Shown: piece after piece, positions 3,112-18,738 of the stretch
Layout: the number at the start of each line of letters is the position of its first letter
How positions within the stretch are numbered: position 1 is the first letter of the stretch
Assembly: GCA_963804955.1 (NCBI GenBank)
Contig: CAWDSQ010000012.1
Coordinates: forward strand, 1 to 18,738
Reading direction: 5' to 3'
DNA length: 18,738 nt
DNA from: an uncultured delta proteobacterium
GTDB lineage: Bacteria; Desulfobacterota; WTBG01; CAIYCZ01; CAIRTM01
Program-made: the position numbers and the translations under genes
The notes under the pieces: generated by a model
The model's input: only the letters and a program-made list of their open reading frames with translations
Databases searched by the model: none
What the model was told of the DNA's origin: nothing

Positions 3112-4069
3112 ATGAAACGGAATTTTTTATTGTATGCCCTGGGGATACTGCTTATCGCCATGCCGTGCTGCTCGAAAAACGACAGCACCACAGCACCGGC
3201 CAAGCCTGCCGGCATTGTCGCCACAATCGGCAGCGCGTCGCTGACCACGGAAGATTTGGCTCGCGCCCTTAACGACGATGCCCCAGACGCAGCAGTTCGA
3301 ATACCTGTCAGATGATGGCAAGCGGGTATTGATTGAGATGCTGATCGACTGGAAGCTGCTGTCGCAGGAGGCTGTCAAAGCCGGGCTTGAGAAGGACGAG
3401 ACTGTCAAGGCTGCTTTAAAGAACACATCAGGCAGCACCGGCGAGCGGGAGGAGGTCCTGGGCAGCGCCTATCTTCTCCACCGCATCAAACAGCTGCCTG
3501 CCGTGACCGCAGAGCAGATAAAAAAGTATTATCTCACCCACCCGGCAGAGTTCGCGCAGCCCGCAAGGATTCGGGTGCAGCGAATCATCTTTGACAGCAG
3601 GGAGCAGGCGCAGCAGGCCCTGCCAGCCATCACGGAAGGCGCGACATTTGAGCAGTATAAGCAGCAGCATCAGCAGAGCAAAATCAAGGTTGATACCCTG
3701 TGGCTGCAGCAGCGCGACAATGCTACGGACATGGAAAGCGCCGCTTTCAAGCTGACAGGCAGCCAGCTGAGCGGCATTATTCCGGTCAGCTCCGGCTTTT
3801 GCCTTGTGCGCGTCGAGGAAAGACTGCCGGCCGGCAGCCGGTCACTGGAGTCTGTCAGCGCAAGTCTTAAGGCGCTGCTCAGGAGCCAACAGGAACAAGA
3901 GCTGATTACCGGGATCAAGGCTGGCCTGCGCAAGGGCAAAACCATTACGGTGAATGAAAGCGCCCTGGCTAACTATCGGTGCGCCGAGTGCGAAGGCAGA
4001 ACTCAGCCGGCAGTGCTGCGCCGCAATCCAGGCATTCCGCCGCAAACGCAGCGGAATACTGCCCCATAA
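3112..4069 (+). CDS. PpiC/SurA/PrsA-like periplasmic foldase, probable lipoprotein; ~318 aa after correcting one +1 indel at ~3277
   Basis: Signal peptide ending ...LLIAMPCCSK; VATIG...LTTEDL; LIEMLIDWKLLSQEAVKAGLEKD; EQIKKYY..HPAEF.QPARIRVQRI; AF.L...QLSGIIPVSSGFCLVRVEER. ORFs 3094-3315 and 3278-4069 join as ALND-MPQTQQ. Confidence 0.8.
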
Positions 4070-4440: not shown

Positions 4441-4824
4441 ATGTTGTTTGTTCAGGATATGGCCGCTGATTATGTGAAGAGAGGAGATATGGACGGGAAT
4501 AAACAGATATGCCCACGCATAAAGACCAATATCAAAACAATATTTGAATTCTCAGGAGTTCTTGTTCCGGGGGATATTTTGAACTTAAGCAGAAGCGGTA
4601 TCTTCGTCAGGACTGACATTCAGCCGCCTGTTGATGAGGCGCTATCCCTGCGCTTTTATTTGCCGGGCGACCCTGAACCACTAGAAGTTGAAGGCCGGAC
4701 GATATGGATACAAAATACAGCCAATGCGCTCCCCGGAATAGGGGTGCAATTTGATAATATCCCGCAGTTTGATAAGGAGCGTATCCACGCTTTTGTAGAA
4801 TGCCATATGCATATGGGAAATTAA
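4441..4824 (+). CDS. Stand-alone PilZ domain protein (start may be ATG 4489)
   Basis: NLSRSG matches (D/N)xSxxG; LRFYLPG..EPLEVEGRTIW...PGIGVQF...DKERIHAFV is a typical PilZ pattern. Confidence 0.85.
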   Translation: MLFVQDMAADYVKRGDMDGNKQICPRIKTNIKTIFEFSGVLVPGDILNLSRSGIFVRTDIQPPVDEALSLRFYLPGDPEPLEVEGRTIWIQNTANALPGIGVQFDNIPQFDKERIHAFVECHMHMGN

Positions 4825-5168: not shown

Positions 5169-5948
5169 TCAGCTCAGCTCAGGCGGTATTTTCGCGCAGG
5201 GTATGGGCTCTGTCTTGTGCCGGTTTGCCCGGTTGAATTTTCTGTAAATGGCAAGGACCTCCTTCTCACGGGTGCTGAGCATTTTTTCATCCTGCTGCGA
5301 CTCTTCAAACAGCATGGCCTTTTCAAGCTCGGGATAGGAGGCTCCGATCTGGCTTTCATCAGTGCGGTTATCATGCCACAGGCCGTCGGTTGACGGGCAG
5401 GACAGAATGGACCCGGCAATGCCCAGTGCGCGGCCCAGTTCATACACCTGGGTTTTCATAAGGTCGGCAATGGGCGAAATGTCAACCCCGCCATCGCCGT
5501 ATTTGGTAAAAAACCCGATGCCGAAATCCTCAACCCTGTTGCCCGTCCCGGCAACCAGCAGCCGGCTGTGGGAAGCCTGCGCATACAGCGTGAGCATCCG
5601 CAGCCGCGCGCGGGTGTTTGCCATGGTGAGCCCGTCCTGAATATCCGCCGGAAATGTCTGCTCAATAGCGTGAAAAGCCTGTGTCAGGTCAACAGTCACC
5701 CCCTGCACAGACGGATACTGCCGCTCAAGTGACTGTATGTGCTGCGCTGCCCGGTCGAACTGATCAGGGGCCTGGTAGATGGGCAGGTTCATAAGAACCG
5801 TCTGCCTGCGGGTTTTTGCACACAGAGTCGAGGTAACCGCCGAGTCAATGCCGCCTGAGATACCCACGACAAAACCGTTCATGCGTGAGCTGTCGCAGTA
5901 ATCAGTGAGCCAGTGCACCAGATAGTCTATAACCAGGGCTGTTTTCAT
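5169..5948 (-). CDS. nadE: NH3-dependent NAD+ synthetase
   Basis: GFVVGISGGIDSAV PP-loop, ANTRARLRM, GTGNRVE, GFFTKYGDGGVDISPIADLMKTQVY, TDESQIGASYPELE; no glutaminase domain. Confidence 0.97.
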   Translation of the reverse strand: MKTALVIDYLVHWLTDYCDSSRMNGFVVGISGGIDSAVTSTLCAKTRRQTVLMNLPIYQAPDQFDRAAQHIQSLERQYPSVQGVTVDLTQAFHAIEQTFPADIQDGLTMANTRARLRMLTLYAQASHSRLLVAGTGNRVEDFGIGFFTKYGDGGVDISPIADLMKTQVYELGRALGIAGSILSCPSTDGLWHDNRTDESQIGASYPELEKAMLFEESQQDEKMLSTREKEVLAIYRKFNRANRHKTEPIPCAKIPPELS

Positions 5949-6151: not shown

Positions 6152-6214
6152 ACCAAGTTTATAATGGGTGTTGCAGTTACTAACTCGTATAGAAAAGAAG
6201 GAGGTTCGACCTAC

Positions 6215-7336
6215 ATGAAAGCTACACGAAGAACATGGCCCGCTGCGGTTGCTTTAGCAGCACTGCTTGGCTTCTGCCTCTCTCCGGCACAGGCAGCAGA
6301 TCCGGTCGGGCCACAGCCAAAGATTCAATTTGCTAAATCATCCCATGATTTCGGTAAATCGGCTCCCAACATGGAGCTGAAGCATTCCTTTACGTTTAAA
6401 AATACCGGCAAGGCGCTGCTGATAATTCAAGACGTCAAAGCAGGCTGAGGCTGCACCGCTGCTTTGGCTTCGGCCAAAGAAATTCCCCCGGGCGGGGAAG
6501 GAAAAATCGATGTAACCTTCAAGACGGGTACAGGCTCAGGCGGCAAGCGGGAAAAACACATTACCGTTACCACCAACGACCCGGAGAAAAAAACGGTCAG
6601 TTTGACGGTGAGCACCGAGGTTATCGAGGCTTTCGGTGTTTCGCCAGTGCGCGTCAACTTCAATCAGGTCAAGAGAGGCCAGGAGCATGTGCGGTATACC
6701 TCGGTGTCCGGCGAAGATAAAGATAGAACGAAGCTCACCGGCTCCGAGTCGCCAAATCCCAATATAAAAGTAGAAATAAACCCCAAGGGCTTTGAAGGTG
6801 ACAAATATCAGCAGATTAAGATTATACTGATGCCGACCATGAAGGCCGGACGGTTTTTCGAACGGGTCACGATTCATACCGACCATAAAACCATGAAGGA
6901 CATTCAGCTCAATGTAATCGGGGATGTAACCGGAGATGTAAGCATTGCGCCCAATCAAGTGCATTTCGGCCTGTTCCAGAAAGGTAAAAAGCCATCTGAG
7001 CGCTTTATGACGATCAGGGCTGTCGGCGAGGTGACTTTCAAGATACTCGAAGTGACATCGTCCATTCCGGAAGTCACCACAAGCCTGGAAACGGTTGTTG
7101 CCGGAAAGGAATATAAGCTGCGTTCGACCCTCAGCGATACGTTTGCCGGCGATTCCCTGAACGGCAAGCTTACGATTAAGACGGATCTGGTGACCGACGG
7201 CATCATCGAAGTGCCCATCGCCGGCCGCGTGCTGCCGCCGGCTGCGCAGCAGCCAGCGGCAGCTACTACCCCCCCGGCAGCACAGCCTGCCGGCGGGATA
7301 CAGCCAGCGCCGCCCTCTCTGCCTGCCAAACAGTAA
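6215..7336 (+). CDS. Secreted DUF1573-like (Ig-fold) protein, 373 aa with in-frame TGA at codon 78 read as selenocysteine (VKAG-U-GCT)
   Basis: RBS AAGGAGGT before ATG 6215; signal peptide ending ...AQA. HDFG...HSFTFKNTGKALLIIQDVKAG*GCTAA...EIPPGGEGKIDVTF...KHITVTTNDP follows the DUF1573 pattern, whose conserved motif is CGCT. ORFs 6164-6448 and 6464-7336 share one frame and are separated only by TGA 6446-6448. Confidence 0.8.
6462..6499 (+). promoter_or_regulatory. Candidate bacterial SECIS hairpin(s)
   Basis: CTTTGGC-TTCG-GCCAAAG (6462-6479) begins 13 nt after the TGA; a second hairpin TTCCCC-CGGGC-GGGGAA lies at 6483-6499. Confidence 0.5.
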
Positions 7337-7363
7337 ATGTTTCAGAGCCATAGAGCATTTCAG

Positions 7364-7395
7364 GGAAGCCGGGCAGAAGCCCGGCTTCCTTTTTT
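7364..7395 (+). terminator. Rho-independent terminator
   Basis: GGAAGCCGGGC-AGAA-GCCCGGCTTCC followed by T6. Confidence 0.9.
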
Positions 7396-7420: not shown

Positions 7421-7448
7421 TTGACAGAACTGAAAGGAATGCTAAGAT
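7421..7448 (+). promoter_or_regulatory. sigma70 promoter of the TetR gene
   Basis: Perfect TTGACA (7421-7426), 16 nt, TAAGAT (7443-7448) with extended -10 TG. Confidence 0.75.
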
Positions 7449-7499: not shown

Positions 7500-8120
7500 A
7501 TGGAAGACGGTAAAAAGGCCCTTATTCTTGAAGCGGCAACAAGAATCTTTGCTGAAAAGGGCTATCAGTACGCCACGATTTCAGATATTGCACAAGCAGC
7601 AGGTATTTCAACCGGCCTCATCTATTCATATTTTAAAAACAAGCTTGATGTGCTGCTGTCAATTATTCTGAACTTTCTGCAGACGCTCAATGCCGGCAAT
7701 CAAGAACAGGTCGCCGCTGCACAGGGCCCGCTTGCCAGCCTTCATGCCGTGCTGCATAATTTCGAAAATATGCTGTTCCGTAATAAAGAGTCTCTGCACA
7801 CGGTGAAGGTCCTCAATGAAGCCCTGCCGCACCTTGTCATGATTAAAGAAGAAAACCTGCAGGAGAAGCGCCGTGAAATAATCGCGGAAAACAAAAAGCT
7901 TTTGGAAACATTTGATACTATTATCTGCCAGGGCCAGAAGGAAAATATTTTTGATGAAACATTAAACCCTGCCGTTATGCGGCAGGTACTGTGCGGCGCC
8001 ATTGAGCGGCTGCATTACGGGCTGTTTTACAGCTCCTACAGCGACCAGAGCATCGGCTACAATGAAACCGATGCGCATCAGTCGATCGTTCGGCTGATTG
8101 AAAAATTTATCTGCAAATAA
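7500..8120 (+). CDS. TetR/AcrR family transcriptional regulator
   Basis: KKALILEAATRIFAEKGYQYATISDIAQAAGISTGLIYSYFKNKLDVL, the TetR helix-turn-helix. Confidence 0.95.
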   Translation: MEDGKKALILEAATRIFAEKGYQYATISDIAQAAGISTGLIYSYFKNKLDVLLSIILNFLQTLNAGNQEQVAAAQGPLASLHAVLHNFENMLFRNKESLHTVKVLNEALPHLVMIKEENLQEKRREIIAENKKLLETFDTIICQGQKENIFDETLNPAVMRQVLCGAIERLHYGLFYSSYSDQSIGYNETDAHQSIVRLIEKFICK

Positions 8121-8237: not shown

Positions 8238-9092
8238 ATGAAAACGTCGAAAGAGTCATTGCAGAATAAACTCGCAGATCTTGAAAAGCCCTATGTTGCA
8301 TTTCTTTGCGAGCAGTTTGCCGGGTGGCGAGGCTTTGCTGATGCGACGCAGCGATTGATCGAAGGCAAAGAGGTGAACCAGACAGACTGCCCCGAGTCAT
8401 ACCTGCATGAATTCAGAATGCTTAAGGAAGTTCTTGCCATGGATGCAACAGGCTCCTTTGACTGGAACAATCCCGTGCTGCGGGAAAGTTTTGCCCATTT
8501 TGCCACATCGCCGTTCTATATACTGTGGGGTGAAACAATCGCCCGGATTTCGCTGCGGCTGGCTGAAGAGGCTGGCGTCAAAACACTCGTGGAGATAGGC
8601 GCGGGCCGCGGACACATGACCGGCATCATGATGAAGCAGATTGAAGAAAAAGACTGCAGCCTCCCTCTGGTTGTCACCGATGTGGCGCCGGCTGTGCTGG
8701 AAAACATTGACAAACTCGCCGCAGGCCATCCAGGCATTGCAATGCGCACCATGCCCTGGGATATCACCCAGCCGCCGCCGCAGGCCCTGCTTGAATCAAT
8801 TGAGCGGCCCTGCCTCATCTATGAGCGGGCGTCCATTATGTATTCAAACATTCCGGCACTGGAGAACATGGCCTCCGTTGCCGATATCGTGGTCTTCGGC
8901 GATATGTTCAATTACACGGGTGAGCTGTACGCCTACGACTCTATTTCTGAAAAAATCGGCGGCAAGCCGCTTTTCTACTCTCAAATTCGTCCCCTCATGG
9001 AAAAATATTTTACCGGCCACTTCTTTTTCGATCTGCGCGCGCAGGAAGCGCTGGGCTATCCCAGCACCACGATCCTTATCGGGTGGCGTTAA
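8238..9092 (+). CDS. Class I SAM-dependent methyltransferase-like protein, substrate unknown
   Basis: RBS AAGGAGGT; motif I LVEIGAGRG, acidic motif LVVTD, then WDI; extra N-terminal helical region. Confidence 0.7.
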   Translation: MKTSKESLQNKLADLEKPYVAFLCEQFAGWRGFADATQRLIEGKEVNQTDCPESYLHEFRMLKEVLAMDATGSFDWNNPVLRESFAHFATSPFYILWGETIARISLRLAEEAGVKTLVEIGAGRGHMTGIMMKQIEEKDCSLPLVVTDVAPAVLENIDKLAAGHPGIAMRTMPWDITQPPPQALLESIERPCLIYERASIMYSNIPALENMASVADIVVFGDMFNYTGELYAYDSISEKIGGKPLFYSQIRPLMEKYFTGHFFFDLRAQEALGYPSTTILIGWR

Positions 9093-9129
9093 CGGCAGAA
9101 ACAGAAAGACCATTATTTCAAAGGGGACA

Positions 9130-9255
9130 ATGATGGACACCTTCGAAAAAATATCGATTGAAGAGCTTAAAAAAGTACCGGAAACACTGCTCTATCCGCT
9201 CCAGGCCCGCTCTATTGAAACAAAGAAAAAAATTGCGCACCTGCGCTTTGCATGA
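9130..9255 (+). pseudogene. Truncated N-terminus (41 aa) of an LCM/TcmP-type O-methyltransferase
   Basis: [39 protein letters not shown] matches the V.ETLL.PL.ARA.E start of this family; no continuation visible. Confidence 0.6.
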
Positions 9256-9360
9256 ATTTTTTTCATAGAAAGGTTTGCGGATTTATACTAGTCTACAGGC
9301 GGAACGAAAGTCCTGAACCACGGATTTGTTGGGTTCGCCCTTATGCAGGTGCTTCTTTGC

Positions 9361-9445
9361 AAGCATTTGGTTTTTCGCAGGTTGGGTTGAGGTACGAAAC
9401 CCAACGGTTTTTTCCGGGCTTAACCCAACCTGCAAAAAACTGCTT
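9361..9445. repeat. REP/REPIN-like nested inverted repeat
   Basis: GCAGGTTGGGTT (9377-9388) / AACCCAACCTGC (9422-9433); inner hairpin GTTGGGTT-GAGGTACGA-AACCCAAC; outer arms extend to AAGCA/TGCTT; an extra GTTGGGTT at 9328-9335. Confidence 0.65.
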
Positions 9446-9470
9446 GGTCATGCAGAAATGGAGAGTGCAG

Positions 9471-10536
9471 ATGAGCAGATACTGGAGCAGACTTGCGGCA
9501 ACGATTAAGCCCTATGTGCCGGGCGAGCAGCCGAAAGACAAAAAATATATTAAGCTCAACACCAATGAAAACCCCTACCCGCCTTCGCCGAAGGTGATTG
9601 AGGCTATCCGGGCTGCGGCTGATGACTACTCTGCGGCTCTATCCCGACCCGAGCTGCAGCAGCCTGTGCCGGACGATAGCACGCTATTTTGGCCTGTCCG
9701 AAAATCAGGTGTTTGTGGGCAATGGCTCCGATGAACTGCTGGCCTTTTGCTTCCCGGCATTTTTTAATCCCGAAGGCCCGCCGATCCTTTTTGCCGATAT
9801 TACCTACAGCTTCTATCCCGTGTACTGCAGGTTCTTCGGCATCCCCTTCGAGACCGCGGCCCTTGACGACGAGTTTCGCATGCCGGTGGAAGCGTTTTTT
9901 AAACCCAATGGCGGAATACTTATCGCAAACCCCAATGCCCCCACCGGGCGATTTCTCGATTTGCCGGCAATCGAATCCATTCTGCAGCGCAATCCGGACA
10001 CCGTCGTTATAGTTGATGAAGCATATGTCGATTTCGGCGGTGAGTCGGCGGCTGGTCTTATAAAAGAATATGAGAATCTGCTCGTCGTGCAGACGCTGTC
10101 AAAATCCCGCTCGCTTGCAGGGCTGCGCGTGGGATTTGCACTGGGGCATGAAGACCTGATAGAAGGCCTCTGCCGCGTGAAGGATTCGATAAACTCCTAT
10201 ACTCTCGACAGGCTTGCGCTTGCGGGAGCACAGGCTGCTATTGAAGACGAAGCCTATTTTCGGGAGACGACGGCCGGCATTATCAAAACCCGCGAGGCAA
10301 CGGCCAAAAGGCTGGAGGCTCTGGGATTCAAGGTTATTCCATCGACAGCAAATTTCATTTTCATATCACATCCTGCCAATGCCGCAGAAACGATCTTCAC
10401 AAAATTGCGTGCGCGCGGTGTGCTGGTGCGTTATTTTAAGCTCCCCCGCATCGACAACTGGCTGCGCGTGAGCATCGGCACTGATGCTGAGATGGATGCA
10501 TTGCTGGATGCTGTAGAATCAATTATACGGCGGTAA
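9471..10536 (+). CDS. hisC: Histidinol-phosphate aminotransferase; ~354 aa after correcting one +1 indel at ~9627
   Basis: [64 protein letters not shown] (PLP lysine), LRVSIGT. Confidence 0.95.
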
Positions 10537-10929: not shown

Positions 10930-11991
10930 ATGATACAAAACATGCCTCCCCTTGTACATATCGTTGGCCGGAAAGGTTCGGGAAAAACCCGTCTGCTGAC
11001 AGCACTTATTACGCACCTGACCGCTCGCGGATTTCGTATTGCCGCTGTTCGCCACACGCCCCACAATCACCGCCTTGACAGGCAGGGGGCAGACACAGCT
11101 TTGTTCACCGACGCAGGGGCTGACGGTACAGCCCTTGCCGCAGCGCAGGAAACGGCAGTGTTTCTCCCTGCAGCGACATGGGGTGAAAAAATTGCCGCCA
11201 TTGGCAGTGCCTTTGCCGGGTGCCATCTTGTTCTTATGGAAGGCGGCCTGCAGCATGGCCTTGAAAAGATCGAGGTGGTGCCCGAAGGGGAAGCGCCTCT
11301 GTGCCGCGATGATGCCAGCCTGCGCGCGTATGTGGGCCAGCCCCGGGACATGAGCTGCATACCCTGTTTTGCTGCCGATGACAGTGCCGGCATCTGCGCT
11401 TTTCTTGAAGCCCGCTATCTCAAGCCCCAGCTGTCTGCAGCCATTATGGCAGGAGGCAAGTCAAGCCGTCTGGGGCGCAACAAGGCGCTGCTTTCGCTTG
11501 GCGGCGCCACGGTCATAGAGCATGTGATTGCCACCGTGTCGGCCATTGCCACGCCGGTCACTATCATTACCAACAACCCCGAAGAATACAAGCATCTGGG
11601 CCTTGCAACAGCCGGAGATCTGCGCCCGGGCTGCGGCCCGCTTTCGGGGATTCATGCCGCCCTCAGCCTGAGCGGCACCGAGTATGTGCTGGTGAAATCA
11701 TGCGACATTCCGCTCGTCGGGCCGGAGCACCTTAGCCTGCTGCACCGCAGCTACCCCGGCCATGACATCACCATATTCAAGACTTCCCGCTTTCAGCCGC
11801 TGTGCGCCATCTATCGCCGCACCTGTCTGCCCGCCCTTGAGGAGCTGATCGACCACGGCGAGTACCGCATTATCGACCTGTTTCCAACCCTCGATACCCT
11901 TGTGATACGCTCCGATGACGAGGATGCGTTCAGAAGCATCAATACCGACGAGGATTATGAAGCCATGCTGAAACGCTTCGAAAACAAATAA
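10930..11991 (+). CDS. mobA: Fused MobB (N-terminal) - MobA molybdenum cofactor guanylyltransferase (C-terminal)
   Basis: IVGRKGSGKT P-loop, RH..H...D..G.DT and LVLMEG (MobB); AAIMAGGKSSRLGRNKALL, GPLSGIHAAL, CDIP, QPLCAIY, SINTDED (MobA); single open frame. Confidence 0.92.
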   Translation: MIQNMPPLVHIVGRKGSGKTRLLTALITHLTARGFRIAAVRHTPHNHRLDRQGADTALFTDAGADGTALAAAQETAVFLPAATWGEKIAAIGSAFAGCHLVLMEGGLQHGLEKIEVVPEGEAPLCRDDASLRAYVGQPRDMSCIPCFAADDSAGICAFLEARYLKPQLSAAIMAGGKSSRLGRNKALLSLGGATVIEHVIATVSAIATPVTIITNNPEEYKHLGLATAGDLRPGCGPLSGIHAALSLSGTEYVLVKSCDIPLVGPEHLSLLHRSYPGHDITIFKTSRFQPLCAIYRRTCLPALEELIDHGEYRIIDLFPTLDTLVIRSDDEDAFRSINTDEDYEAMLKRFENK

Positions 11992-12880: not shown

Positions 12881-13815
12881 ATGAAAACATTTTCCATTGT
12901 TGTTCCGATTTATTTCAATGAGTTAAACATCCCTCATTTGATCCCCCGGCTTAAAGGCCTTGCAGGAAAGGCTTCCGGATTATAATTTTGAATTCATTTT
13001 TGTTGACGATGGTTCGAAGGGATGACTCGTATGCGGTGCTTCTGAACGAGCATAAAAAAGGACAAAAGAATAAAAATAATTAAACTCAGCCGAAATTTCG
13101 GCTCTATGTCCGCCATTCAGGCTGGCCTGCAGTATGTAACCGGTGATTGCGCGGGCATTATCACCGCAGACCTTCAGGATCCGCCGGAGCTGTTTCTGGA
13201 GATGCTGGCAAAGTGGCAACAAGGCAACAAAGTAGTCATGGCCTTTCGAGAAGGACGGGAGGACTCGAAGCTGCAAAGCTTTTTTTCAAATGCCTATTAT
13301 TTTTTATTAGATGCTTTTGCTCTTAAAGGGTATCCGAAGGGCGGCTTTGATCTGGTTCTTATTGACCGGCAAATAGTTGATGAGCTAAACAAAATTTCTG
13401 AAAAAAACACCAATATCATGAATCTCATATTCTGGTTGGGGCATGACCGCAGTTCGATTTCATATATACGGCAAAAAAGAGAATATGGCACATCACGGTG
13501 GACCCTTTCCAAAAAAATAAAGCTCATCGTCGACTCATTCATCAATTTTTCATATATACCTATCAGATTTATCTCTTCGGTCGGATTTATAACCGCACTG
13601 CTTAGCTTCAGCTATGGTGTTCTTGTATTGTTTTTGTGGTTTTTTTCTACGGTAGCTCTGCCGGTGCGGGGATGGGCCTCCATTGTCGCAATCATCACGT
13701 TTCTGCTTGGACTCATCATGATTATGCTTGGAATAATCGGAGAATATTTATGGCGAATCCTTGATGAAACCGGAAACGTCCCAGCTATATTGTTGATAAA
13801 GTTATTGAGGGATAA
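12881..13815 (+). CDS. GT2 polyprenyl-phosphate glycosyltransferase (GtrB/ArnC/DPM1-like); ~310 aa after correcting four indels
   Basis: MKTFSIVVPIYFNELNI, FEFIFVDDGSKDDS, IKLSRNFG, ADLQDPPE, two C-terminal TM helices, GIIGEYLWRILDET-RKRPSYIVDK. Requires removing one base each at ~12959, ~13020, ~13059 and adding one at ~13770. Confidence 0.88.
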
Positions 13816-13927
13816 ACAGTCAAATCCCCATCAGCACAGCACCCGCATGTTACTGCAGGGCGAGGAGAGAACGCCAATCCAGCCGCGCCAGATGATAAAC
13901 GCAACACAAGCAGGGAGCGCCACACAA

Positions 13928-14362
13928 ATGAAAGGACTTGAAAAATTGGAACAGTCCGGCAATAAGCTTGATGAGGTGCGCATTATTTCGCTGCCGTCGG
14001 TTGTAGATGCGCGTGGTGTGCTGACTGCAATAGAAGGCACCCGGGATATACCGTTTGAAATGAAACGGGTTTTTTATATGCACCATATTAAAAGCGACCG
14101 GGGGGGGCATGCCCACCGCGACACGGACCAGATAGTCATAGCCGCTTCCGGTTCATTCACTTTAGAGCTTTTTGACGGCAAAGAGTACAAGAGCTTTGCT
14201 ATGAATGACCCGACCAAAGGGGTCTATATTCCGCGCATGATATTTATCAGGATGTTTGATTTTACTCATGACAGCGTCTGTCTTGTAATTGCAAACAGCT
14301 ATTATGACATAACGCGCTCTTTTCGGACACAAGAAGCGTATCTGGGTTTTTTAAATCAGTAA
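13928..14362 (+). CDS. FdtA/QdtA (WxcM-like) cupin sugar 3,4-ketoisomerase
   Basis: DARGVLTAIE...IPFEMKRVFY...RGGHAHR..QIVIAASGSF...DG...GVYIP...VCLVIANSYYD; start uncertain (ATG 13928 or TTG 13946). Confidence 0.88.
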   Translation: MKGLEKLEQSGNKLDEVRIISLPSVVDARGVLTAIEGTRDIPFEMKRVFYMHHIKSDRGGHAHRDTDQIVIAASGSFTLELFDGKEYKSFAMNDPTKGVYIPRMIFIRMFDFTHDSVCLVIANSYYDITRSFRTQEAYLGFLNQ

Positions 14363-14376
14363 CTCAAAGCATCTAT

Positions 14377-15819
14377 ATGCGGACCACTCATCTACACCAT
14401 AAGTTTATATTGTCGGCATTAACGACAAACGGCGCTTTTTTCACTGAAGACCAATTTTTAGCATGGTTTAATGCCAAGTCTATAAACGGCTCCTATGCCG
14501 TTAAGCAAATCCCTTTTTCAGAGCTTCAGAACTGGCATTTCAACCCCGACACGGGTGATTTAGCCCACGACTCAGGTAAATTTTTTACCGTTCATGGCAT
14601 TTCCATAAAGACCAACTACCCTAAAGACCTGTACTGGGAACAGCCCATAATATATCAGCCGGAAATCGGCATCCTGGGAATACTTACAAAAACATTTGAT
14701 GGCATCCCGCATTTTCTTATGCAGGCGAAAATGGAGCCTGGCAATATCAACATGGTTCAGCTGTCCCCGACGCTTCAGGCAACCAAAAGCAATTATACGC
14801 AGATTCACAAGGGAAAGCTGCCGCTGTATTTTGAATATTTTAAGGACAGAGCCAGGGGGAAGATTATTATTGACCAGCTGCAGTCCGAACAGGGCGCCCG
14901 GTATTTTAACAAGAGAAACCGGAATATGATTGTGGCCATTGAAGATGATATCGAGGTGCATGAGGATTTCTGCTGGCTGACCCTTGGCCAGATAAAAAAA
15001 CTATTGTGCTATGACAATCTTGTCAATATGGATTCGCGGACTGTTCTGGCCGGCATTCAATTTTTTGATTGGGAAAATTTGGGCGCTGTCAGTCATGTGA
15101 TCGATGGCTCTTCAGTTGAGCTGTTTGGTATGAGGCTGGAGGGGTTTAAGTATGATCTGTATATATCCCTGGTGGAGAAGGATAAAACGCTGCACAGCTT
15201 TGATGATCTGATCAGCTGGTTTACCCATTTAAAATCAAGTTGTGACGTGCTGGTTAAAAGAATTCCCCTGAATTCGGTACAGAAATGGAGCAAAGACGCC
15301 TATGAAATACGGCATGATTCGCACCACTATTTTTCGGTGATTGCCGTTGAAGCCCAGGCGCACAACCGGGAGGTTTCCTCCTGGACCCAGCCGCTGCTCA
15401 AACATTTTTCCCATGGCATAGTCGGTTTTTTAGTGGCGAAGATAAACGGCGTACTGCATTTTCTTGTTGAGGCCCGAATGTGCCCCGGATATCTGGATCT
15501 GATAGAAATGGGGCCGACAGTTTCCTGCTCTGAGGTTGAGCACCGGGTGCAAACCAATATGGCGCCGCCTTTTTTTGAATATTTCTACGAAGCGGATGAG
15601 AAAAGAACGCATTTTTCGACGATACTTTCCGAGGAGGGCGGCCGTTTTTACCATTACCAAAACCGGTATATGATTGTTGAAATAGACAACCCGGAGACGC
15701 TGAAGGTCCCTACCAATTATATCTGGATGAGCCTGGGCCATTTAATGAAATTTATTAAGCATACCAATTATATAAATGTCGAGGCGCGAACTTTAATCGC
15801 TTGCCTCAATTTTTTATAG
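14377..15819 (+). CDS. NDP-hexose 2,3-dehydratase (EvaA/OleV/TylX3-like)
   Basis: HDSGKFF.V.G, WEQPIIYQPEIGILGIL, HFLMQAKMEPGN...QLSPTLQATKSNY, LQSEQG..., and the duplicated half WTQPLL...GPTV...LSEEGGRFYH...NVEARTL. Confidence 0.93.
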   Translation: MRTTHLHHKFILSALTTNGAFFTEDQFLAWFNAKSINGSYAVKQIPFSELQNWHFNPDTGDLAHDSGKFFTVHGISIKTNYPKDLYWEQPIIYQPEIGILGILTKTFDGIPHFLMQAKMEPGNINMVQLSPTLQATKSNYTQIHKGKLPLYFEYFKDRARGKIIIDQLQSEQGARYFNKRNRNMIVAIEDDIEVHEDFCWLTLGQIKKLLCYDNLVNMDSRTVLAGIQFFDWENLGAVSHVIDGSSVELFGMRLEGFKYDLYISLVEKDKTLHSFDDLISWFTHLKSSCDVLVKRIPLNSVQKWSKDAYEIRHDSHHYFSVIAVEAQAHNREVSSWTQPLLKHFSHGIVGFLVAKINGVLHFLVEARMCPGYLDLIEMGPTVSCSEVEHRVQTNMAPPFFEYFYEADEKRTHFSTILSEEGGRFYHYQNRYMIVEIDNPETLKVPTNYIWMSLGHLMKFIKHTNYINVEARTLIACLNFL

Positions 15820-15864
15820 GTTTTTTACATGGCACTGCATGATTATGATGTCCGGGAGAGTGGT

Positions 15865-16830
15865 ATGCATGTGCTGTTGTTAGGGTATTCGCGCATTGCC
15901 CGCAAACGCATCATGCCAGCCCTGAGCGCCTTCGGTACGGCTGTTCATCTGGATATTGCGTCAAAAAGCTCAGCAGGTGCCGCCAGGGCTGAACAGTGCC
16001 TGCCGGGAAATATATTTGATTCCTATGGCTCAGCGCTTCATGAAAGCAGGGCTGAGGTGGTCTATATTTCCCTGGTAAACAGCGATCATGCCCATTGGGC
16101 TGAAATGGCGCTTGCAAGCGGCCGTCATGTTGTGGTGGATAAGCCGGCTTTTCTAACATATGTTGATGCCGAACGATTAGTGGCTCTGGCTCAAGACAAA
16201 AAGCGGCTTCTTGCCGAAGCAAATGTATTTCCGTTTCATCCGCAAATTGAATGTGTATGTGAAGAGTTCAAAGCCGTTAAGTCTTCTCCCCTCAAGATAA
16301 CCTCTGTTTTTTCATTTCCTGGCTTTCAAAAAGAGGACTTCCGTTATAAGGCCGATTGTGGCGGCGGCGCTCTCAATGATCTGGGCCCCTACGCTATCAG
16401 CGCCGGCACGGTTTTTTTTAACGAGCACCCGCAGAAGCTTTTTTGCCAGGTGACGGATCGCTCCAGCGCGGGGGTTGATTTGTCATTCAGCATGGCGGCT
16501 CTTTATTCCGGGGGACGTGCTATGGTCGGTCATTTCGGCTTTAACACCGAATACCAGAATACAATTTCCATACTGGGTCCCTCGATGTGTATCAGCTTTG
16601 ATCGTGTGTTCACAATACCCGCTGATTATAGAAACACGCTGAAGGTGCGGGCGTCAGATACCCTTAAAGAGATAACCGTGCCTCAGTCGGACTGTTTTGT
16701 AAATTTTTTTAATAGGATTTTCAGTGCGGTTAAAAACAGTCAGTTTAGAGACTGGTATGAGCACGTGCTCTTGCACGCTAAATCTCTTGAGATGCTTAAG
16801 TCTGCCACGCACAAGGAAGATGCCGTATGA
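15865..16830 (+). CDS. Gfo/Idh/MocA oxidoreductase, putative NDP-hexose ketoreductase (alternative start 15829)
   Basis: LLGYSRIARKRIMPAL, VYISLVNSDH, GRHVVVDKP, FRY....GGGALNDLGPY, DRVFT; GGGAG RBS 6 nt before ATG 15865. Confidence 0.85.
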   Translation: MHVLLLGYSRIARKRIMPALSAFGTAVHLDIASKSSAGAARAEQCLPGNIFDSYGSALHESRAEVVYISLVNSDHAHWAEMALASGRHVVVDKPAFLTYVDAERLVALAQDKKRLLAEANVFPFHPQIECVCEEFKAVKSSPLKITSVFSFPGFQKEDFRYKADCGGGALNDLGPYAISAGTVFFNEHPQKLFCQVTDRSSAGVDLSFSMAALYSGGRAMVGHFGFNTEYQNTISILGPSMCISFDRVFTIPADYRNTLKVRASDTLKEITVPQSDCFVNFFNRIFSAVKNSQFRDWYEHVLLHAKSLEMLKSATHKEDAV

Positions 16831-17930
16831 TAAAAGTCTGGGATTACCTTCAGGAATATGAAGACGAAAAGAATGAAATCAAAGAGGCTATTGAAGCAGT
16901 TTTGACCTCCGGCTGGCTGATTCTCGGGCAGCAGGTAAAGCAGTTTGAAAGCTCCTTTGCCGCATATTGCGGCGTATCCTACGGGGTAGGGGTCAATTCC
17001 GGAACCGATGCGCTGTTCCTTGCTCTGAAAGCAATCGGTGTCGGCAGTGGCGATGAGGTTATTACGGTATCCAACACGGCCGTCCCGACAGTGTCTGCAA
17101 TTGTATCTACAGGCGCTGTTCCCCGCTTTGTTGATATTGATCCGCGGACATACCTGATGGATACTGATTTACTGGAACAGGCAATAACGAAAAAGACCAA
17201 ATGTATCCTCCCCGTCCACCTGTATGGCCAGTGCGTCAACATGGAAAAGCTCACCGCGCTGGCTGAAAAACACGGCATACCTGTTCTGGAAGACTGTGCC
17301 CAGAGCCACGGGGCAGAGTATAAGGGGAAGCGCGCAGGCGGGATGTCAGCACTTGCTGCATTTTCCTTCTATCCGACAAAAATTCTGGGCGGCTACGGTG
17401 ATGGCGGCATGGTTGTAACCAACGATGAGAGCATATACAAAAAGCTTCTGCGCCTGAGATTTTACGGCATGGAAAAGACCTACTATGCGCTTGAACACGG
17501 GTATAATTCGCGGCTTGATGAACTGCATGCCGCCATTCTTTTAAAGAAGCTTGCTCACTTGAATGACTATATCAATCGCCGAAGAGCAATCGCGGCCCTC
17601 TATGATGACATGCTTGCAGATACGTCTCTGACATTGCCTTATCGGGATCCCGACGGCATGCATGCTTTTTATTTGTATGTCTGCCGCCATGCAAAGCGCG
17701 ATGCCATCATTGCGAAACTTGCGGAGAACAGCATATCGGTAAATGTCAGCTACCCCTGGCCCATTCACACTATGGAGGGCTATCGGTCTCTTGGCTACGC
17801 AGCGGGCGATTTCCCCCATACTGAAGCAGCTGCCAATGAAATATTTTCTCTGCCCATGTATCCCGGCCTTGATGAACCGACTCAGTTGCAGGTCATAGAC
17901 CATCTTAAAAGGATACTGAAGCATTTGTGA
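16827..17930 (+). CDS. DegT/DnrJ/EryC1/StrS sugar aminotransferase, EvaB/DnrJ-like (C3 transaminase)
   Basis: VWDYLQEYE N-terminus, NSGTDAL, PVHLYGQ, EDCAQSHGA, FSFYPTKILGGYGDGG (PLP lysine), GYNSRLDELHAA; ATGA overlap with the previous gene. Confidence 0.93.
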   Translation: MIKVWDYLQEYEDEKNEIKEAIEAVLTSGWLILGQQVKQFESSFAAYCGVSYGVGVNSGTDALFLALKAIGVGSGDEVITVSNTAVPTVSAIVSTGAVPRFVDIDPRTYLMDTDLLEQAITKKTKCILPVHLYGQCVNMEKLTALAEKHGIPVLEDCAQSHGAEYKGKRAGGMSALAAFSFYPTKILGGYGDGGMVVTNDESIYKKLLRLRFYGMEKTYYALEHGYNSRLDELHAAILLKKLAHLNDYINRRRAIAALYDDMLADTSLTLPYRDPDGMHAFYLYVCRHAKRDAIIAKLAENSISVNVSYPWPIHTMEGYRSLGYAAGDFPHTEAAANEIFSLPMYPGLDEPTQLQVIDHLKRILKHL

Positions 17931-18086: not shown

Positions 18087-18738
18087 ATGGTTTCAAAAAA
18101 CCATCATTATCTCGTTGCCCTTTCCATTATCTGCTGTATTGGATTTGCCTTCCGTATATATAATATAAATGTTTCTTTGTGGTGCGATGAAATGATGCAG
18201 GCAACAGCTGCATCTGCAGAATGGAAAGATCTATTTTATTTAATCGCAAATCATAGCTCGCCGCCGCTGGACTATGCACTAATGAAAACTGTCATTCTTT
18301 GTTTCGGCAAGGCGACTGGGTTCTCAGAATGCCTGCTTTCTTGTTCGGGGTTGCTTCTATACCGGTTTTTTATTATTTTTCCCGAACATTAGTAGAGCAA
18401 AAAACAGCATTGGTTGCAGCAGCCCTATTGGCGCTTTCACCTATTGCACTATACTATTCGCAAGAAGCCCGGATGTACTCGCTTTTTTTATTCCTCTCAT
18501 TGATAAGCTTTATTGCAGCTTTAAGGTTAGCCGAAAAAAACAGTTTTACGTATAGCCTTGTATTGGGGGCTGTAAACGGATGCCTTCTTCTCATTCATTA
18601 TTTTGGGATCTTTGTGATCGCTTATGAAACGATTTTTTTAATGTCAGTTGCGCTGTGCGCTGTAGAGAAAAAAAGACGCATCGAACTGTTGGCGGTTAGC
18701 CTGATTATTTCTTTTTTCTTTTTCTTGCCGTGGCTTCC
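18087..18738 (+). CDS. GT-C fold polytopic membrane glycosyltransferase (PMT_2/ArnT-like, GT39/GT83); runs off the window end; one -1 indel at ~18312
   Basis: TM1, then R....SLWCDE, PPLDY..., FG..DWVLRMPAFLFG, ALLALSP...YYSQEARMYSL, HYFG, FLPWL. Confidence 0.85.

Follow-up and report, generated by a model that had tools for sequence, protein, structure and literature searches.

The stretch of DNA described here, referred to as the window, comprises the 18,738 nucleotides (nt) of contig CAWDSQ010000012.1 from an uncultured delta proteobacterium (GenBank assembly GCA_963804955.1). Positions 6215-7336 of its forward strand very probably constitute one gene for an exported OS_HP2/DUF1573 selenoprotein, in which the UGA at codon 78 is read as selenocysteine (Sec, U). 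The gene is an ordinary member of a selenoprotein family catalogued since 2007, and both the family and its U-G-C motif were already known. The addition made by this analysis is the two-hairpin anatomy of the recoding signal downstream of the UGA, which is an imperfect fit to the standard model of the bacterial selenocysteine insertion sequence (SECIS).

A single in-frame TGA interrupts the 373-codon frame, which stays open beyond it up to the TAA at 7334-7336, and a six-frame search of the genome with the protein likewise returned one TGA within the query's own match. The local peptide reads VKAG-U-GCT, with G-U-G-C-T as residues 77-81. These features had been recognized in a preliminary description of the locus, which also stated that the domain continues on both sides of the TGA; the PF07610 match does indeed cover residues 37-135 as one stretch. 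Under translation table 11 the locus falls into two open reading frames (ORFs), 6164-6448 and 6464-7336. A change of genetic code is excluded because TGA is the normal stop of four of the 15 larger ORFs in the window, namely 596-1522, nadE (5169-5948, reverse strand), 15829-16830 and 16827-17930, the last three of which had been cited earlier as true stops.

The family matches lie on the first domain of the protein. PF07610 (DUF1573) matches at 94.5 bits (E 4.2e-27) over profile positions 1-97 of 98, passing the gathering cut-off of 26.1, and PF22544 matches the same domain at 68.6 bits. Among the NCBIfam models, NF041425, the “OS_HP2 family (seleno)protein”, is the top match by a wide margin. 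The literature describes OS_HP2 as having Sec or Cys in a U-x-C or U-G-C motif within PF07610, and this arrangement is present here. The family was first reported in 2007 from the Olavius algarvensis symbiont metagenome, with two Sec sequences and no Cys homologues at that time (PMC1976440); Figure 5 of that paper, which concerns SECIS elements, shows other families, not OS_HP2. A 2008 Global Ocean Sampling paper listed “OS_HP2, pfam07610, UxC” with two Sec and 354 Cys sequences (PMC2398784), and the pairing of OS_HP2 and PF07610 with a UxC/UGC motif recurs in papers from 2022 and 2026 (PMC9312934, PMC13188914). In the available text of these papers, no SECIS is presented for OS_HP2. Whether Sec forms had been catalogued, a question left open in the preliminary description, can thus be answered in the affirmative: they have been so as OS_HP2/PF07610 UxC since 2007-2008, and as NF041425. 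The present protein shares with the known OS_HP2 selenoproteins the PF07610 domain, the U-G-C at the same column and a deltaproteobacterial or Thermodesulfobacteriota host, and differs from the OS_HP2 model in adding two Ig-like domains and a Pro/Ala tail for which there is no Pfam model. The nearest named records, found by a related-locus search with the protein, are metagenome-assembled genomes labelled “uncultured delta proteobacterium” or “Thermodesulfobacteriota”.

Conservation of the TGA was assessed in two sets of genomes. When 41 related genomes were searched in six frames with the protein, 33 gave matches, and among the 53 matches listed, 45 contain a TGA and eight do not. The codon aligned to residue 78 was read in 40 of these, the 13 left out being partial or the weakest matches, and it is TGA in 36 loci and TGC in four. 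The TGA-bearing loci range from 87% down to 25% identity to the query. Across the phylum, a scan of 201 sampled genomes with the NF041425 profile found the domain in 82; 11 of the 14 matches above the profile cut-off carry a TGA and three are without. From other families, 20 matches scored as having a TGA and 20 scored as having none were then chosen. All 20 of the former hold TGA at the column itself, and the latter hold TGC (16) or TGT (4). Pooled over these 80 loci, the column reads TGA in 56 and TGC or TGT in 24, which provides both the alignment of UGA with Cys and the conservation of UGA by which a bacterial selenoprotein gene is recognized. The preliminary description had placed the TGA at the family Cys position and had proposed abandoning the claim if no homologue shared it; the codon proved to be widely shared.

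Cys-form DUF1573 proteins, with C-G-C or C-A-C, have the fold and the position of the motif in common with the Sec forms. Their hosts belong to the same phylum, and a Cys form sometimes shares a genome with a Sec form or is its neighbour (genomes G006, G005 and G013); in one genome a Cys-form and a Sec-form domain adjoin (G079:C37:14970-15254 and 15924-16208). They differ in having a Cys codon in place of the UGA, and in mostly lacking the first of the hairpins described below. The C-A-C variant is found in certain Cys forms from the phylum sample (loci L081, L088, L090 and L093). One Sec form (L053, G022:C35:7446-9264) has U-G-S, not U-G-C, at the residues aligned to window 6446-6454, and the resolving Cys is therefore not universal.

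The TGA could in principle be a sequencing or assembly error for TGC or TGT, given that only a draft assembly of the genome is available (4.26 Mb, 36 contigs, 87% complete). However, 55 other assemblies hold TGA at the same column. Additionally, the independent run X17, made from an RNA library, has a contig that spans 6378-6528 with a sole difference at 6502 and hence keeps the TGA; on the point of the read check suggested earlier, this contig shows neither TGC nor TGT. A contig from DNA run X3 over 6392-6582 has ten differences, and none of the eight listed lies at 6446-6448. Coverage from runs X1 and X16 does not extend to the TGA and is uninformative on the codon, and presence in the RNA libraries (X16 and X17) is no proof of transcription.

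The genome is also equipped to decode UGA as Sec. It encodes selA (383 bits), selB (345 bits, against a cut-off of 242) and selD (334 bits, itself with an in-frame TGA), and a tRNA-SeC(tca) gene, selC, adjoins selA. The complete set of selA, selB, selC and selD that is expected alongside a selenoprotein gene, and that had been proposed as a check, is therefore present. The TGA of selD (G000:C28:1709-2632, reverse strand, outside the window) is at match codon 9 and is followed about 20 nt 3' by a 9-bp hairpin with a G-rich loop. Two FdhA-like molybdopterin genes (G000:C7:184916-185392 and G000:C13:110294-111352, both forward strand and likewise outside the window) carry TGA in the usual R-x-U-H-S context. 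These two genes and selD each have one hairpin, with a loop that starts with GG and lies 18-23 nt from the UGA, and they fit the published SECIS model. A third molybdopterin match (C7:202892-204187, reverse strand) has a TGA at match codon 270 in an atypical context, which may be a gene boundary or a frameshift. Within the window, 10930-11991 encodes a MobB-MobA fusion for molybdopterin guanine dinucleotide synthesis, which fits a genome holding Sec-containing molybdopterin formate dehydrogenases.

Were the TGA a genuine stop, the locus would be either a pseudogene or a pair of genes, the first for a secreted fragment of 77 residues and the second a 290-residue ORF from the TTG at 6464. The separate ORFs obtained under table 11 and the use of TGA as a stop elsewhere in the window agree with such an interpretation, as does a GAGG placed 13 nt before the TTG; on account of this GAGG, the earlier statement that the downstream ORF has no evident ribosome-binding site is only roughly true. 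A nonsense mutation, however, would not persist at one column in 56 loci from many families and down to 25% identity, and at the 24 other loci the same column holds Cys codons exclusively. Moreover, a single Pfam domain crosses the TGA, the genome has the complete Sec machinery, and a Sec-specific RNA structure lies 3' of the codon. Together, the machinery, the conservation of the codon and the independent contigs make a pseudogene or split gene highly improbable and a sequencing error scarcely credible.

Two hairpins follow the UGA within the coding sequence (Table 1). Hairpin 1, at -9.0 kcal/mol, was equalled by none of 200 shuffles and bears out the earlier report of a stable hairpin after the TGA. 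Hairpin 2, at -8.2 kcal/mol, shows no gain in stability over shuffled versions of its own G+C-rich sequence. Support for these structures comes from comparison of homologues. Among 19 close Sec forms, 97.2% of the cells in the pairing count are paired, versus 50-65% when the partners are shifted. In these forms hairpin 1 has three pairs with changes in both partners, one of them occurring as UA (n=10), CG (n=5), GC (n=2) and GU (n=2). Hairpin 2 is unvarying in the same set save for one C-to-U change that retains a wobble pair. Codon choice is similarly constrained: across 22 close Sec forms, codons 87, 90, 92, 94, 95 and 97 each appear as one codon only (22 of 22), codons 91 and 93 are the same codon in 95%, and the mean share of the majority codon is 0.79 over codons 79-98 compared with 0.54 elsewhere.

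The two hairpins differ in how well they separate the 56 Sec forms from the 24 Cys forms. The mean energy of hairpin 1 is -9.9 kcal/mol in Sec forms and -4.7 kcal/mol in Cys forms (p 4e-9) and that of hairpin 2 is -9.65 and -8.1 kcal/mol, respectively (p 0.02), p-values that are overstated and only indicative because the genomes are related to one another. An energy of -5 kcal/mol or lower is attained by both hairpins in 54 of the 56 Sec forms and in eight of the 24 Cys forms. Relative to synonymous recodings of the same peptide, hairpin 1 has a median z of -2.37 in Sec forms (40 of 56 at -2 or below) and -0.68 in Cys forms (3 of 24); for hairpin 2 the medians are -1.0 and -0.56, a difference (p 0.01) to which the same reservation applies. 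The weak contrast at hairpin 2 is attributed to the conserved I-P-P-G-G-E-G peptide, as CCN CCN GGN GGN codons are complementary by nature. Distant Sec forms retain a hairpin at this site through coordinated codon changes and even residue changes, and those encoding PPGQEG, PAGGRG and APGGSG have a perfect stem there each time. A single phylum-wide consensus for hairpin 2 was tried and rejected, the pairing register varying by group (i+j = 26, 28 or 29 in a 30-nt frame), and for this reason the counting of pairs was confined to the 19 close Sec forms. One Cys form, L090, retains a strong hairpin on its IPPGGEG codons without a UGA, which could reflect a recent conversion of Sec to Cys or a chance effect of the PPGG codons.

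A number of results weigh against the selenoprotein interpretation or against its RNA signal. The NF041425 score obtained with C replacing U, 98.1 bits, narrowly misses the curated cut-off of 100, and the six-frame search, in which the stop is unscored, gave 86.2 bits. In the available text of the four papers cited above for OS_HP2 (PMC1976440, PMC2398784, PMC9312934, PMC13188914), the family is given as a computational prediction only. The neighbouring nadE and TetR genes give no pointer to function. The whole 60-81 nt after the UGA folds no better than shuffles (z -0.83; z 0.06), so thermodynamics alone is no evidence and the case rests on the comparison of homologues; the folding energy of the whole stretch was accordingly discarded as a test for a SECIS, the total minimum free energy (MFE) also overlapping between Sec and Cys forms. 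For the most part hairpin 2 arises as a side effect of the PPGG peptide motif, and a number of Cys forms are able to fold it as well. Scanned against Rfam at E up to 10, the region 6350-6600 gave chance-level matches only and no SECIS family. Finally, neither hairpin satisfies every constraint of the published bacterial SECIS model, which as given in a 2026 review calls for a loop of 3-9 nt, a stem of 4-16 bp, a G in the first two loop positions, a distance of 16-37 nt from the UGA and an MFE of -7.5 kcal/mol or lower (PMC13188914). Hairpin 1 is within the limits in size, spacing (20 nt) and energy, but its loop does not begin with the required G at either of its first two positions. Hairpin 2 is within the limits in size, G and energy, and its spacing of 40 nt is outside the range. 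The signal resembles a canonical bacterial SECIS in being a stem-loop structure inside the coding sequence directly 3' of the UGA, and differs in that the G rule and the spacing rule are obeyed by separate hairpins.

Decoding of UGA-78 would on this evidence be steered by RNA structure in the 55 nt 3' of the codon, made up of the covarying hairpin 1 and then hairpin 2 with its G-rich loop. For the division of labour between the two, two tentative proposals can be made. The preferred one is a bipartite SECIS, in which hairpin 2 might be the SelB-type element and hairpin 1 a spacer that loops out 18 nt. Because it is encoded by the conserved Pro-Pro-Gly-Gly codons, the GG-loop hairpin would lie too far from the UGA, at 40 nt, and the spacer would restore an effective distance of about 22 nt, which is in the range of the selD and FdhA-like genes of the same genome. 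If this is true, a latent PPGG hairpin would explain why Sec and Cys forms are so frequently found side by side in the family. Somewhat less favoured is a reading in which hairpin 1, with its non-canonical loop, would be the only SelB-binding SECIS and hairpin 2 would merely follow from the PPGG motif. It is hairpin 1 that sets Sec forms apart from Cys forms, it covaries and its loop is at a permitted distance, whereas hairpin 2 differs weakly between the two groups. However, the loops of hairpin 1 are unconserved and mostly without the required G, whereas the other three Sec genes of the genome all have loops starting with GG at 18-23 nt. The synonymous loop positions of hairpin 2 are, moreover, frozen in close Sec forms, and stability alone is no explanation for this.

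The translated product is an exported protein in which a signal peptide is followed by three Ig-like domains in tandem and then by a Pro/Ala tail. The signal peptide was assigned to residues 1-27 by eye from the translation and is a likely one. A lipoprotein reading of the sequence LLGFC was considered and rejected as unlikely, as Cys21 is not conserved and is a Trp in the closest homologue (L016). An AlphaFold2 model built on a 37-row alignment has a predicted local distance difference test (pLDDT) score of 87 and contains three beta-sandwich domains at about residues 35-137, 140-240 and 241-340. In the first of these, U78 sits in a short turn between strands 69-76 and 80-84. Residues H57, N63, U/C78, G79, C80, P92, G93, N121, D122 and P123 are invariant or nearly so in the alignment. 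The proposal of an exported Ig-fold protein with a U-G-C motif was thus upheld by the translation, by PF07610 and by the model.

Searched by sequence with the full-length protein, the PDB gave no match at E up to 1, and Foldseek with the three-domain model returned generic tandem Ig/ASH-like arrays only, with no functional lead. The beta-sandwich fold is the same as that of ASH, HYDIN and VesB-like Ig domains (PF22544, PF15780) and of tandem Ig arrays in the PDB. Foldseek placed ciliary central-apparatus proteins first, in which such domains abound, followed by titin and cadherins. Identity to the tandem Ig matches is 9-16%, and TM-scores are low (0.20-0.35) because the relative orientations of the domains differ. 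These matches provide no information on the U/C-x-C site, and no thioredoxin fold was detected by Pfam, in the AlphaFold2 model or by Foldseek.

Features that would place the protein in the thiol/selenol-disulfide oxidoreductase class are the U-x-C spacing and the exchange of Sec and Cys only, as seen in the sequence. CxC peptides can mimic disulfide isomerase, and CxC pairs serve as metal ligands in other proteins. U78 and C80 have about an even chance of forming a reversible selenenylsulfide, as an extracytoplasmic CxC-type redox centre that would exchange with thiols or disulfides in the cell envelope. The suggestion follows from the fact that Sec generally sits where a redox-active Cys sits, which is described as an established rule (PMC1794560, PMC9312934). 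The main alternative, a less likely one, is that, in what would still be a true selenoprotein, U78 and C80 instead constitute a metal, metalloid or chalcogen site, for example for Cu(I), Hg(II) or As(III). A pair of soft ligands at positions i and i+2 of an exposed turn might chelate a soft metal, and among the selenoproteins in the tables available from reviews are several that handle metals, namely a cation-transporting ATPase, a putative mercuric reductase, a CobW-like protein and a YHS domain protein. In contrast, no metal-resistance or transporter gene adjoins the locus, the neighbouring regulator is of the TetR type and not MerR or ArsR, and the U-G-S Sec form keeps one nucleophile but loses the chelating pair. 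What probability remains falls to a structural or other role for U78 and C80. The redox or metal-binding chemistry suggested in the preliminary description is an inference in the literature as well.

Table 1. Mapped features of the OS_HP2/DUF1573 selenoprotein locus, in window coordinates.
Feature	Position	Strand	Remarks
Shine-Dalgarno-like AAGGAGG	6198..6204	+	10 nt upstream of ATG; read straight from sequence
Selenoprotein gene (very probable), 373 codons including one Sec codon	6215..7336	+	ATG 6215-6217, stop TAA 7334-7336
Probable signal peptide, residues 1-27	6215..6295	+	Likely cleavage after AQA; by eye; residues 1-30 low pLDDT
Ig-like domain 1 (DUF1573/OS_HP2), residues 37-135	6323..6619	+	Carries U78-G79-C80; PF07610, NF041425, model
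Sec codon TGA (U78)	6446..6448	+	Conserved column in homologous loci; kept in independent contig
Hairpin 1	6462..6479	+	7-bp stem, loop UUCG, apical loop 20 nt after UGA; covaries; Sec-form-specific
Hairpin 2	6483..6499	+	6-bp stem, loop CGGGC, apical loop 40 nt after UGA; on I-P-P-G-G-E codons
Ig-like domain 2, residues 140-240	6632..6934	+	AlphaFold2 model, pLDDT mostly >90; no Pfam match
Ig-like domain 3, residues 241-340	6935..7234	+	AlphaFold2 model; no Pfam match
Pro/Ala-rich tail, residues 341-373	7235..7333	+	Low model confidence; poorly conserved
Intrinsic-terminator-like hairpin (13 pairs), then T run	7362..7391	+	
TetR-family regulator gene	7500..8120	+	Own promoter-like site 7421-7448

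The selenoprotein gene looks monocistronic, situated as it is between the divergent nadE and the terminator-like hairpin. Both nadE and the TetR gene are syntenic within the genus, and the TetR gene is also present in three loci of other genera (L021, L024 and L026). A different setting is seen in two genomes of another family, each of which has a facing pair of distant Sec-form DUF1573 paralogues separated by about 6 kb (L055, G030:C8:335500-348000; L056, G022:C35:1-11000). The intervening stretch holds TMTC/PMT_2-like membrane glycosyltransferase genes with long TPR arrays, and a gene for a HEAT-repeat protein adjoins. This may be a conserved envelope-glycosylation neighbourhood for the distant paralogue group; no such TMTC/PMT_2-TPR neighbourhood is seen at the selenoprotein locus of the window.

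Elsewhere in the window, a Kelch-repeat protein (596-1522) and a PKD-domain protein (2026-2877), both probably exported, are encoded upstream of a PpiC-type rotamase (3278-4069) and a PilZ protein (4441-4824). The ORFs at 8238-9092 and 9252-9734 have no Pfam match, and the former is syntenic with the TetR gene in several relatives; overlapping ORFs at 8641-9255 and 9598-10536 blur the true gene boundaries within the 8238-9734 region. A deoxy-amino-sugar nucleotide cluster occupies 13106-17930, with genes for a glycosyltransferase/FdtA-WxcM fusion, an NDP-hexose 2,3-dehydratase, a GFO/IDH/MocA oxidoreductase and a DegT/EryC1 aminotransferase. It is followed by a PMT_2 family glycosyltransferase gene (18299-18736) that runs past the end of the window.

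The OS_HP2/DUF1573 domain is widespread in the phylum, as its presence in 82 of the 201 sampled genomes attests, and about half of its strong matches are Sec forms. With standard gene callers, 6215-7336 will come out split or truncated; the proper call for it is one OS_HP2/DUF1573 selenoprotein. No functional study emerged from a full-text literature search for DUF1573, judged by titles and abstracts, and searches on OS_HP2 and on DUF1573 with selenoprotein found no reported experiment on the family in the material available. As a scaffold for selenium chemistry, an exported Ig-like domain carrying a U-x-C motif is unusual, and its biochemical study would be new work. As for its decoding, the requirements of SelB are still called open for “a subset of selenoprotein genes” in the available text of the 2026 review (PMC13188914), and to this discussion of what SelB needs in bacteria the two-hairpin signal makes a small contribution that can be tested.

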